Sequence record: NZ_CP071298.1
DNA length: 6,677 nucleotides
DNA from: a plasmid
Direction: 5' to 3' (one strand)
Shown here in pieces: positions 897 to 5,785 of the stretch. The position numbers and the translations under genes were made by a program. The first letter of the stretch is position 1, and every line of letters begins with the position of its first letter. Under the pieces are notes generated by a model. That model searched no databases, had not been told where the DNA came from, and saw only the letters and a program-made list of their open reading frames with translations.

Positions 897-1014
897 GATG
901 CTTTTGACTTGTAAGAACAGGATTGAATGAAGCCATACTGTTCGCATATTTTTAGTGGATGAACAAACAAAATACGAGAGATTTTTTGTTCGTTTATCCA
1001 TGGTTTTAGAAAAA

Positions 1015-1055
1015 AGAGGGACGATTTCGGAAGAAGAAAATCGTCTCTTTTTTTC
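1015..1055 (+). terminator. Stem-loop agagggacgattt...aaatcgtctct followed by T7; terminator-like
   Basis: Stem of about 11 bp with a 2-nt bulge, a 10-nt loop, and a T-run at 1048-1055. Confidence 0.45.
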
Positions 1056-1088
1056 TTCTTTTTGTATGACAAAAAGAAAGATCTTTTG

Positions 1089-1112
1089 CCCATTTTATAA
1101 AAATAAAATGGG
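1089..1112. repeat. Hairpin cccatttta-taaaaa-taaaatggg
   Basis: 9-bp perfect stem. Confidence 0.4.
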
Positions 1113-1191
1113 TAGGTGGCGTTTGCGTAAAGCAAATCGACACAATCCAAAGGGAATAAAAGGGGAAAGTGAAACTTCCCCCTTTTCAAGC

Positions 1192-1233
1192 CACATTGTA
1201 ATACAAGAACGAAGTGCTTTGTATTACAATGTG
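1192..1233. repeat. Long inverted repeat cacattgtaatacaa-(12 nt)-ttgtattacaatgtg
   Basis: 15-bp perfect stem with a 12-nt loop (gaacgaagtgct), in a non-coding region. Confidence 0.6.
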
Positions 1234-1512
1234 ATAGCTTGCAGTATTTGTGGTATTATATTCTCTATTTTGTTAGGGGGATTGCAACCGCATAGGGCGC
1301 AATCCTTATTACAAAATCAATGACAAAGGGCGATTGAGGAATGAGCGCTGAGGCATTTTATTTTTAAAAAAAACTATTTATAAGTTCGAAATATGTATCA
1401 CAACTTTAATACGTGCTATCCAACTTTAAGAGAAGGACATTGATTCTTAGAACTATTCTCTTTTTGGTTATTGCTGAAAGCAATTTCTGATACCTATTTT
1501 TTGAGCAAATTA

Positions 1513-1550
1513 ACACCACTTTTTAGAGTGGTGTGTAAGTGCGCATTGTC
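1513..1550 (+). other. Candidate origin of transfer, MOBQ/RSF1010-like: inverted repeat acaccact-ttttag-agtggtgt immediately followed by GTAAGTGCGCATT
   Basis: The arrangement of an inverted repeat followed by a TAAGTGCGC core resembles the nick region of IncQ-type oriTs (TAAGTGCGCCCT). No relaxase gene is present in the window. Confidence 0.5.
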
Positions 1551-1736
1551 CTTATTTCATTCGGACTTCTGAATTTTAAAAATAAAGATTTTATTTCTTA
1601 ACTTCTCAATGCAGATATTAAATTATTTTATAAATTTGAGCGTACTTTTTGGAACTTCATTGTTTTTAAAAGCCTTTTGTATTTTAGATGGGCTTTTTGA
1701 CGCTTTACAGACCTTTTAAGGAGTTTTAAAACGAAT

Positions 1737-2149: not shown

Positions 2150-2232
2150 GTGGGCAAAAAACTGTGTATACGTGGGCAAAAAACTGTGTATACGTGGGCA
2201 AAAAACTGTGTATACGTGGGCAAAAAACTGTA
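2150..2232 (+). repeat. Origin iterons: 22-bp direct repeat GTGGGCAAAAAACTGTGTATAC, three full copies plus one partial
   Basis: Perfect copies at 2150-2171, 2172-2193 and 2194-2215, and a 17-bp partial at 2216-2232. They lie directly upstream of the rep promoter, the classic arrangement of Rep_3 theta replicons of lactic acid bacteria. Confidence 0.88.
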
Positions 2233-2247
2233 CAAAGTCCACATATA

Positions 2248-2299
2248 TGTTATAATAAAAGCATAGAGAAAATTCAGCGCGAAATGACTTTCTCTATGC
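2248..2299 (+). promoter_or_regulatory. rep promoter (extended -10 TGtTATAAT at 2248-2256) with an 11-bp perfect inverted repeat operator gcatagagaaa...tttctctatgc (2261-2299)
   Basis: Extended -10 with a weak -35. The IR lies between the -10 and the RBS AAGGAG (2320-2325) and is a likely Rep autoregulation site. Confidence 0.55.
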
Positions 2300-2333
2300 C
2301 ACCTTAAAATCACTCACAAAGGAGTAACTTACT

Positions 2334-3494
2334 ATGCCTATTATACCAGAAAATCAAAACAAACAAAAGCAGGTGCTAACCTTGAATGACCTTGAAAAAC
2401 GCAAAGTAGTGGAGCATAACAGCCTCATTACCTCAATAGCCAAAATGGATAAAACGCCCTTGAAAATGTTTGAATTGGCGGTGTCTTGCATTGATACGGA
2501 AAAACAACTGGAAGATAATACGGTTTATCTTTCTAAAAGAGACCTTTTCGCTTTCTTTAAGGTGTCTGATAATGACAAACACAGTCGTTTTAAAGAAGCG
2601 GTTGAGAAAATGCAGAAACAAGCCTTTTTCAAAATCAAAGAAAAAAAAGATAAAGGTTTTGAGTTTGAAAATATTGTGCCGATTCCTTACGTCAAGTGGA
2701 CAGATTATAACGATGAAGTGTTAATCCGTTTCAGTCCTGAAATTATCCCCTACTTAGTCAATCTCAAAAAAAATTTCACGCAACATGCCTTATCTGACCT
2801 TGCTGAACTCAATAGCAAGTACAGTATTATCTTATATCGTTGGTTATCCATGAATTATAACCAATATGAGCATTACAGTTTCAAGGGCGGACGGAGAGAA
2901 GAACAAGTGGAAAGCTACCGCAATCCAACTATTTCTATAAAAGAGTTACGTACCATGACGGATACCGTAAAGTTATATAAAGAATTTAGAGATTTAGATA
3001 AAAGAGTTTTAAAAGAATCGTTGGAAGAAATCAACACTCACACCTCTTTTAACGTGTCTTATGACAAAGTGAAAAAAGGGCGAAGCATTGATTCTATTGT
3101 CTTTCACATCACGAAGAAACACCGAGCAGACGATAACAGCTACAAACTAGAGGACAAAACGTATCAAGAAGCGAAAGCCCAAAAAGAAGAATCTGAAAAG
3201 GACTTAGTCTTTAAAGCAATGGAAAGCAAATATACTAAATTGCTTATTGAAAATTTCCTTTTATCGCCCTATGAAATGACTGATACAGCACTTATGGCAG
3301 GTTTGCAAAAAAATGTTTATCCAAAGTATGACGAACTCAAAACATTACGAGGACTTGAGGGGGTCAAGAAGCACCTCTCATACGTTCGTGAGAAGCAAGA
3401 ACCTTATTCAAAAGGGAACATTGCAAAGTATCTTAAAAAGGCAATTGAACAGTACCTACCAACGGTTAAAAGGCAGGACATAGAAAATGAATGA
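2334..3494 (+). CDS. repB: Theta-type plasmid replication initiator, Rep_3 family (RepB-like), 386 aa
   Basis: RBS AAGGAG 8 nt upstream of the ATG. Sits immediately downstream of the iterons. Size and N-terminal winged-helix-like region are typical of iteron-binding Rep_3 initiators. The charged C-terminal half is typical too. Confidence 0.85.
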   Translation: MPIIPENQNKQKQVLTLNDLEKRKVVEHNSLITSIAKMDKTPLKMFELAVSCIDTEKQLEDNTVYLSKRDLFAFFKVSDNDKHSRFKEAVEKMQKQAFFKIKEKKDKGFEFENIVPIPYVKWTDYNDEVLIRFSPEIIPYLVNLKKNFTQHALSDLAELNSKYSIILYRWLSMNYNQYEHYSFKGGRREEQVESYRNPTISIKELRTMTDTVKLYKEFRDLDKRVLKESLEEINTHTSFNVSYDKVKKGRSIDSIVFHITKKHRADDNSYKLEDKTYQEAKAQKEESEKDLVFKAMESKYTKLLIENFLLSPYEMTDTALMAGLQKNVYPKYDELKTLRGLEGVKKHLSYVREKQEPYSKGNIAKYLKKAIEQYLPTVKRQDIENE

Positions 3495-4074
3495 AAACTA
3501 CAAAACCATAAAGGAACTTGCGGATGAGTTAGGTGTGAGTAAATCATATATTGATAAAATAATACGCATACTGAAATTGCATACTAAATTAGATAAAGTA
3601 GGTAATAAGTATGTGATTTCTAAAACACAAGAGAAGTCTATAAAAAATAGGCTTCTTTCGTCTGAATCAACAACTAAATCACACACTAAATCGACAACTA
3701 AAACGCATACTGAAGTTGATTTTGAAGTCGATTTTTTGAAAGAAGAAATCTTATATCTTAGAAAGAGTCACGATAAACAATTGACCAACAAAGATAAGCA
3801 GATAGAAACTTTAAGTAATCTTTTAGATCAACAACAACGACTAGCCTTACAAGATAAAAAGTTGTTAGAAGAATACAAAGCAGAAAATGACAGCTTAAAA
3901 GCTCTTAAAATGCCTACACAGGAAACAGAATTCAAACACTTAGACAATCAATATAAAGATGAAGTGAACGCTCTTAAAGAGAAGTTGGAAAATTTGCAGG
4001 AACAACTCAAAGTTCAAAAAAGGATAGAAGAACAAGAAAAACCAAGAAAGTGGTGGGGACTATGGCGAAAATAG
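3487..4074 (+). CDS. Replication-associated HTH/coiled-coil protein (OrfX-like), 195 aa
   Basis: Start overlaps the rep stop by 8 nt. The N-terminus TIKELADELGVSKSYIDKIIRIL is HTH-like. Residues from about 90 onward are heptad-rich coiled coil (LKEEILYLRKSHDKQL...LKEKLENLQEQLKVQKRIEEQ). This is the usual position of orfX in lactococcal-type theta replicons. Confidence 0.7.
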   Translation: MNENYKTIKELADELGVSKSYIDKIIRILKLHTKLDKVGNKYVISKTQEKSIKNRLLSSESTTKSHTKSTTKTHTEVDFEVDFLKEEILYLRKSHDKQLTNKDKQIETLSNLLDQQQRLALQDKKLLEEYKAENDSLKALKMPTQETEFKHLDNQYKDEVNALKEKLENLQEQLKVQKRIEEQEKPRKWWGLWRK

Positions 4075-5704: not shown

Positions 5705-5712
5705 CCTCTATA

Positions 5713-5785
5713 GGGGTCCCGAGCGCCTACGAGAAATTTGTATCGATAAGAAATAGATTTAAAAATTTCGCTGTTATTTTGTACA
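5713..5785 (+). repeat. Tn917/Tn3-family-like terminal inverted repeat (GGGGTCCCGAGCGCCTACGAGAAATTTGTATCGATAAG) plus adjacent sequence; direct-repeat partner of 499-569 (DR-B)
   Basis: Starts with GGGG at 5713 as Tn3-family IRs do. From memory the sequence matches the Tn917 left terminus. Near-identical in direct orientation to 499-569. Confidence 0.7.

Follow-up and report, generated by a model that had tools for sequence, protein, structure and literature searches.

An erm(B) plasmid of the lactococcal theta type carries a candidate orphan origin of transfer related to that of pMRC01

The window, i.e., the whole 6,677-bp stretch of DNA analyzed here, is a circular lactococcal theta-type plasmid. 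We propose, with a probability of roughly 70%, that its region 1470-1572 (core 1513-1547) is an orphan origin of transfer (oriT) belonging to the pMRC01 branch of the MOBQ (RSF1010/pIP501) family. This reading is based on homology, architecture, covariation, the absence of a relaxase and the natural occurrence of a helper and a homologous plasmid in the same strain; from these, we infer nicking of the site, the position of the nick, the relaxase that would act on it and mobilization of the window plasmid. The oriT family itself, its prototype on pMRC01 (a plasmid reportedly described by Dougherty in 1998) and mobilization by a relaxase supplied in trans are known already.

Results

Parts of the site

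An initial annotation of the sequence had described an 8-bp inverted repeat with a 6-nt loop followed by a nick core at 1513-1550, and both the sequence and a repeat finder agree with this description (Table 1). The 9-mer TAAGTGCGC has a single occurrence in the window, on the + strand at 1536-1544 (9/9), where it starts 1 nt after the 8-bp stem. The right arm of this inverted repeat, IR-1, is probably the relaxase recognition arm. Farther upstream, a second inverted repeat, IR-2, has a stem that is kept across relatives, and the box that separates it from IR-1 takes the form CTTCT[G/A]ATAC in almost every member of the family. The block downstream of the nick region aligns with GTCCTCGCTTCGCTCGGTCTGCTGA in pMRC01 and with GACCTCGTTTCACTCGGTCTGCTGA in Lactiplantibacillus plasmids.

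With up to one mismatch, 0.81 occurrences of the 9-mer are expected by chance in the window, and perfect 8-bp inverted repeats with loops of 3 to 10 nt number 20 (at approximately 11 separate places) versus 2.1 in shuffled sequences. The inverted repeat alone or the 9-mer alone is unremarkable; their combination is not due to chance, a significance that comes from the comparison with other sequences described below. Folded as single-stranded DNA, the segment 1500-1560 reaches -10.6 kcal/mol (z = -4.55), a stability equaled by 0 of 200 shuffled sequences. Other identities considered for the hairpin were rejected: it is neither terminator-like (a GC-rich stem followed by a T-run) nor promoter-like, and it does not belong to a known RNA family, the antisense RNA ctRNA_pND324 being the only Rfam match in the window.

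Nicking is predicted between G1543 and C1544 of the + strand, in line with the nic position of RSF1010. The placement also relies on a review of pIP501, which gives the nic site as 5'-GpC-3'. The window departs from the complete MOBQ consensus, ...TAAGTGCGCCCTY (Francia 2004, quoted in PMC3832669): it has TAAGTGCGCATTG, with GCGCATT for GCGCCCT. CATT in place of CCCT is common to pMRC01 and most members from lactic acid bacteria (LAB). Relaxase-linked members carry GCGCATT, GCGCCTTT or GCGCCCTT 3' of the nick core (KMGR2-43 unnamed5 and pAF22, upstream of mobQ). Thus, unlike the CCCT of the MOBQ consensus, the bases that follow the nick are not fixed in this branch.

Table 1 Features of the window and of related loci
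Molecule	Feature	Position	Strand	Remarks
Window	erm(B) cassette with leader peptide	spans the window ends		between 78-bp direct repeats 492-569 and 5708-5785
Window	Perfect inverted repeats of the 840-1110 cluster	844-873, 877-896, 1020-1045, 1033-1058, 1056-1078, 1089-1112		
Window	Second orphan oriT-like element, pNZ4000/pCD4 type	1192-1243	+	290 bp upstream of the MOBQ-type site, unrelated to it
Window	15-bp perfect inverted repeat of this element	1192-1206/1219-1233	+	12-nt loop; followed by ATA and GCTTGCA (1237-1243)
Window	IR-2, distal inverted repeat, ATTGCT-GAA-AGCAAT	1470-1484	+	
Window	Conserved box TTCTGATAC	1485-1493	+	between IR-2 and IR-1
Window	IR-1 left (distal) arm ACACCACT	1513-1520	+	repeat finder; pairs with 1527-1534 in the DNA fold
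Window	IR-1 loop TTTTAG	1521-1526	+	
Window	IR-1 right (nick-proximal) arm AGTGGTGT	1527-1534	+	repeat finder; GTGGTGT is the same in pMRC01
Window	Nick region GTAAGTGCGCATT	1535-1547	+	directly 3' of IR-1
Window	Downstream conserved block GTCCTTATTTCATTCGGACTTCTGA	1548-1572	+	
Window	Iterons, 22 bp, three full units and a partial fourth	2150-2231		just upstream of repB
Window	ctRNA_pND324 antisense RNA	2248-2334	-	Rfam, 86.4 bits
Window	repB	2334-3494		
Window	orfX, HTH/DUF536	3487-4074		
Window	hsdS	4050/4062-5303		
pUC08E	MOBQ-type site, pUC11B type	~3711	-	
pUC08E	MOBQ-type site, ACATCAA stem	~4031	+	
pUC08E	MOBQ-type site, window type	~7012	+	102 nt identical to the window
L085	Orphan-site pair	438/502	+/-	
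L085	Orphan-site pair	846/933	+/-	
L116	Orphan-site pair	1512/1575	+/-	
L006	Orphan-site pair	4017/4115	+/-	

Homology to characterized origins of transfer

A 66-nt query around the site matched 1,376 plasmid records, chiefly from LAB. The match is intergenic and adjoins a MobQ-family relaxase gene in pMRC01, pS127 and Lactiplantibacillus plasmids; in pMRC01, the strand opposite traA reads ...CTTCTGATACCATTTTTTCGAGCAATTACACCACCCAATTTTGGAGTGGTGTGTAAGTGCGCATTGTCCTCGCTTCGCTCGGTCTGCTGA... Compared with pMRC01, the window is identical at 26/26 positions of 1527-1552, at 13/13 of 1536-1548 and at 33/38 of 1513-1550. The alignment with the region upstream of traA extends over 1478-1573, with 76/97 identical positions, and the remainder of this block outside the 26/26 stretch is ~70% identical. 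Similarity to an oriT nic region beyond the 9-mer had been set beforehand as a test of the candidate site, and the 26/26 stretch and the 78% identity over 97 nt provide it. Hickey et al. (2001, cited in PMC11097999) reported that the oriT of pMRC01, when cloned in a vector, is mobilized by pMRC01.

Ortiz Charneco et al. (2024, PMC11097999) delineated a minimal oriT in pUC11B, a pMRC01-like plasmid. Its 39 nt, from -120 to -82 relative to trsA, contain an inverted repeat of 10 bases and a nick region of 13 nt. At these coordinates, the pUC11B record reads TTATACCATGATTTTTCATGGTATATAAGTGCGCCCTT, which is equivalent, position for position, to 1512-1550 of the window.

The site had initially been likened to the nick regions of RSF1010 and the IncQ family. 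That comparison holds for the architecture; the closest kin, by contrast, are found in the pMRC01/LAB MobQ oriT family. As a query, an RSF1010 oriT sequence gave 100% matches to IncQ-type plasmids, and the papers retrieved for GTAAGTGCGC were all unrelated.

Covariation within the family

The position of the site relative to the relaxase gene is regular. In 25 loci found by tblastn with TraA of pMRC01, a TraA-like MobQ start codon lies 108 to 111 bp from the T of TAAGTGCGC, with the gene reading away from the site; the distance is 124 bp in pRE25. The site occurs with no relaxase nearby in the window, pCIS2, pNZ4000, pUC08E and several others.

For an analysis of covariation, we assembled all TAAGTGCGC sites in the fetched loci, including 120 loci from a genome-wide GTAAGTGCGCATTG scan. 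This set comprises 42 unique family sequences with 17 different 7-nt proximal arms, e.g., GTGGTGT, GTGATGT, GTTGTGT, GTGGGGT, TCTATGT, ATGACGT, CAAGGGT, TTGGAGT and ATGGTAT, and TAAGTGCGC is invariant across all aligned members. Because their loops vary in length, the 48-nt cores could not be brought into register at the 5' arms with MAFFT, and we looked instead for the complement of each 7-nt proximal arm independently of alignment register. An exact complement was present 4 to 12 nt upstream in 33/42 sequences. Such a stem was found in 0/87 chance GTAAGTGCGCATTG 14-mer matches in unrelated genomes, mostly Pseudomonas and metagenome-assembled genomes, which served as the negative control, and swapping of arms between members yielded a mean of 0.07 perfect stems, with a maximum of 2. 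IR-2 also displays paired changes, with GTTGCC/GGCAAC in pMRC01, GTCGCC/GGCGAC in lactobacilli, GTTGCT/AGCAAC in L006, and GTCGG/CCGAC. These compensated IR-1 and IR-2 stems indicate that the hairpins are structurally constrained while their sequences drift. Together with the homology to pMRC01 and the equivalence to the minimal oriT of pUC11B, the covariation in 42 sequences upholds the initial proposal of a MOBQ-type oriT candidate.

In MOBQ systems, relaxase specificity is set by the stem, whereas catalysis is directed at the core. The combination of an invariant core and a drifting stem would be expected if the same division of roles applied here. TraA of pIP501 binds inverted-repeat half-sites, according to the review of that plasmid.

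Several orphan MOBQ-type sites with different stems can be present on one small plasmid or contig, often as head-to-head pairs 60 to 100 bp apart (Table 1). Such pairs may represent oriT stacking or be products of relaxase-mediated recombination.

Absence of a relaxase and range of helpers

The initial annotation had stated that no relaxase or mobilization protein is encoded on the plasmid, and our searches bear this out. Pfam analyses of the window proteins identified RepB, HTH/DUF536, HsdS and Erm only, with no Mob domain, and with three MobQ relaxases and MobA/MobB/MobC as tblastn queries, the circularized window gave nothing below E = 2.8. In the window, then, no cognate MobQ gene adjoins the site. 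As the window has no relaxase or Mob gene, the site is classed as an orphan oriT, and the plasmid is probably transferable only by a co-resident helper plasmid.

Published deletion data bear on the identity of the helper. We used the record of pUC08E (7,809 bp) as a proxy for pUC11E, because it has the same length and begins at repB, as do the coordinates of the paper. pUC08E harbors three MOBQ-type sites (Table 1). The pUC11E derivatives F3 and F2, which lack 3579-3773 and 3579-3935, respectively, were not mobilized by pUC11B (<1e-5 %; PMC11097999, Table S5); if the proxy holds, both retain the sites at 4031 and 7012. Derivative R1 of pUC11E(e), which lacks 6393-7320, an interval that spans the window-type site, was recovered in the donor and was still mobilized (PMC11097999, Table S5), indicating that it replicates without that site. 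pNP40 mobilized none of the pUC11E constructs (PMC11097999). With pUC08E as the proxy, these observations indicate that transfer by pUC11B or pNP40 neither requires the window-type site nor can be supported by this site alone, and its non-use by these two helpers argues for a narrow helper specificity.

The ability of R1 to replicate also bears on the idea that the hairpin serves the theta replicon as a signal for replication or transcription, e.g., as a terminator, a regulatory RNA or a single-strand initiation site. Its location is compatible with such a role, as it lies inside the conserved backbone, ~600 bp upstream of the iterons and ~800 bp upstream of repB. However, a pUC11E derivative devoid of the region still replicates, and in conjugative plasmids the homologous element keeps a constant spacing to a relaxase gene rather than accompanying a replicon. 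We regard a replicon signal as very improbable.

The deletion data can also be read as those of an inactive relic, a pMRC01-like oriT fragment left by past recombination and passively carried with a widespread oriT-ori-repB backbone. This reading accounts for the lack of an adjacent relaxase and for the failure of the window-type site to support mobilization of the pUC11E derivatives by pUC11B and pNP40, if pUC08E is a valid proxy. It is also compatible with the 98 to 99% identity among lactococcal copies of the site region, in that conservation alone is no proof of selection and may reflect recent spread of the backbone. A relic would not, however, be expected to match pMRC01 at 26/26 positions in the proximal arm and nick region while the remaining part of the 97-nt block is ~70% identical, nor to have IR-1 and IR-2 sequences that differ from those of pMRC01 and yet form perfect stems through paired changes. 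In addition, orphan copies with varied stems recur across many plasmids, often several per plasmid, which fits capture and retention. On balance, we consider the relic unlikely and favor an oriT that depends on a specific helper.

Judging from the sequences, the most likely helper would be a plasmid that encodes a pMRC01-type TraA; the site that belongs to this relaxase agrees with that of the window in both the proximal arm and the nick region. A near-identical stem adjoins the MobQ gene of KMGR2-43 unnamed5. The blood isolate Lactococcus garvieae L2 contains a 33.6-kb conjugative MOBQ plasmid, unnamed1, with a pMRC01-type site and a traA-oriT region that shares 98% identity with its pMRC01 counterpart, and a 16.4-kb plasmid, unnamed3, whose window-type site is embedded in sequence that matches the window at 99.1% identity. 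Thus, for a homolog of the window plasmid, natural co-residence with a candidate helper is documented. pMRC01-like relaxase regions with at least 96% identity occur on >20 Lactococcus plasmids, including plasmids of L. garvieae. In PLSDB, the relaxase-less carriers pUC08E and L2 unnamed3 are typed as "mobilizable," which suggests that some oriT database already matches the backbone.

A second oriT-like element

An element of another oriT family, pNZ4000/pCD4, precedes the MOBQ-type site in tandem and in the same + strand orientation (Table 1). It folds as single-stranded DNA at -16.3 kcal/mol (z = -5.81), and it has the traits of its type: a long inverted repeat, a CTTGCA hexamer and a location upstream of mobC-mobA in relaxase-bearing relatives. 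In p002F, the same type of element lies ~140 bp upstream of mobC-mobA-mobB, and the relaxase next to it is typed as MOBP by MOB-suite. tblastn against the circularized window detected no mobC, mobA or mobB. In published annotations of pGL3/pGL4, pIL1/pIL7, pCD4 and pNZ4000, the CTTGCA-type element is the oriT, with CTTGCA as the nick hexamer, and oriT1 of pNZ4000 is reported to be functional.

The presence of this element qualifies the initial claim that the plasmid could be mobilized only in trans by a MOBQ-like relaxase: the lack of a relaxase of its own stands, whereas the restriction to MOBQ does not. It also raises the alternative that mobilization proceeds through 1192-1243 with a cognate MobA and MobC/MobB, the MOBQ-like site being redundant or unused. 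The strongly structured 15-bp inverted repeat with its CTTGCA element, the arrangement in p002F, the reported activity of pNZ4000 oriT1 and the choice of the CTTGCA-type element as the sole oriT in annotations of related plasmids all speak for this route. It is not exclusive, however, as both sites are on the + strand, point in the same direction and could serve different helpers; moreover, the pUC11E constructs that keep the element were not mobilized by pUC11B or pNP40 either. We consider mobilization through this element, with a redundant or unused MOBQ-like site, quite improbable, and the orphan MOBQ-type oriT remains our preferred reading.

An open reading frame at 955-1323 (+) overlaps the hairpin of the CTTGCA-type element. 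Its RefSeq homologs in pUC08E, pNZ4000 and pCIS2 are named "cytochrome B" or hypothetical protein, and Pfam gave no match; the reading frame is probably not a true gene but an artifact of annotation across structured, noncoding oriT DNA. Short perfect inverted repeats crowd 840-1110, upstream of the element.

Plasmid backbone

Iterons of 22 bp and ctRNA_pND324 upstream of repB make up the usual control region of lactococcal theta replicons. The identical RepB is found on at least 23 contigs that differ in hsdS alleles and cargo, with an erm gene nearby in one, and this 386-aa protein is linked to at least five HsdS lengths (209 to 426 aa) and varied cargo (contigs L136 to L141). The pattern fits shuffling of hsdS on a constant oriT-ori-repB-orfX backbone. 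In 6/6 contigs shown with an identical RepB, the MOBQ-type site is 757 to 797 bp upstream of repB. At least 80% of 1330-1760 is covered in 23 plasmid records, and 39 records match this interval at ≥95% identity.

The whole plasmid had 0 records with ≥80% coverage in PLSDB, and an exact look-up of the HsdS protein gave no match. The direct repeats that flank erm(B) are 92% identical. At one end of the cassette, a resolvase gene is truncated after ~28 codons (region 753-838), and homology to the lactococcal backbone picks up again at ~830. The cassette looks like an erm(B) segment of the Inc18/pRE25 type that was inserted by natural recombination.

Discussion

If the site is a functional orphan oriT, its use can be envisioned as follows. 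In a donor cell that also harbors a pMRC01-type conjugative plasmid, TraA (MobQ) of this helper would bind the + strand at the IR-1 hairpin or at the arm next to the nick site, cut at 5'-GTAAGTGCG/CATT-3' (G1543/C1544) and remain on the 5' end. The + strand, piloted by TraA, would then pass 5' to 3' through the coupling protein and type IV secretion system of the helper, so that the replication origin and repB side would enter first and IR-1 last. Once the hairpin and nick site were reconstituted, TraA would re-join the strand, and RepB would re-establish the plasmid in the recipient.

In the literature that we examined, the pMRC01-like site of small repB/hsdS plasmids was not found named as an oriT. 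One paper judged the related L. garvieae plasmids pGL3 and pGL4 to be nonmobilizable for want of mob genes, and its oriT annotation is the CTTGCA element only. Plasmids of this backbone are usually scored from their genes, yet the backbone has a close copy of the pMRC01 oriT, and in clinical L. garvieae it is found together with pMRC01-type helpers. Given this close copy and the co-occurrence of helpers, relaxase-less erm(B)/hsdS plasmids may move between lactococci of food, animals and humans, which suggests a need for oriT-aware mobility typing of LAB plasmids.

More tentatively, and with slightly less than an even chance of being right, we suggest that LAB MobQ plasmids use a modular oriT code, in which an invariant TAAGTGCGC is combined with a freely evolving hairpin (at least 17 stem types) that sets relaxase specificity, and that relaxase-less plasmids collect several orphan sites. 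If so, orphan sites, some of them head-to-head, together with oriTs of other MOB families would let small plasmids ride any helper present, in a LAB-wide, lactococcal counterpart of the staphylococcal network of oriT mimics. The tandem pair 1192-1243 (MOBP-typed) and 1513-1547 (MOBQ-type) would then be a dual-helper mobilization cassette built into the commonest lactococcal theta-replicon backbone, here with erm(B).

Among known systems, the oriT of pMRC01 is the closest. The two sites have an identical proximal arm GTGGTGT with GTAAGTGCGCATTGTCCT (26/26), and each also has the box TTCTGATAC, an IR-2 and the conserved block downstream. They differ in that the window has no adjacent traA, its site being upstream of a repB theta replicon, and in their stems. 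IR-1 is a perfect 8-bp stem with a 6-nt loop in the window; in pMRC01, it reads ACACCACCCA/TGGaGTGGTGT, a longer stem of ~10 bp with a one-base bulge, whose distal half differs from that of the window. The IR-2 stem is GTTGCC/GGCAAC in pMRC01 and ATTGCT/AGCAAT in the window. The oriT of pUC11B likewise consists of an inverted repeat, one spacer base and TAAGTGCGC, and its spacing from the MobQ gene equals that in pMRC01, but its stem is TATACCATGA, its 3' side is CCCTT, and TrsA is only 36% identical to TraA of pMRC01.

The oriTs of RSF1010/R1162 and pIP501/pRE25 also place an inverted repeat directly 5' of TAAGTGCGC, with the same strand logic. Similarity to these does not extend beyond the 9- to 10-mer, the stems are unrelated, and GCGC is followed by CCCT rather than by the CATT of the window. 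The core of pRE25 (pIP501 type) is identical to that of the window at 15/40 positions, and RSF1010 has only the architecture of an inverted repeat plus GTAAGTGCGC in common with it.

A parallel at the level of plasmid biology is offered by the staphylococcal oriT mimics of the pWBG749 family (PMC8136818), in which relaxase-less, nonconjugative resistance plasmids carry copies of the oriT of a conjugative plasmid. Their subtypes differ in specificity-determining repeats, and several mimics can be present per plasmid, as in pUC08E with its three MOBQ-type sites. The systems differ in that the mimics belong to another relaxase/oriT family, whereas the hosts here are Lactococcus and other LAB and the window variant is a predicted oriT.
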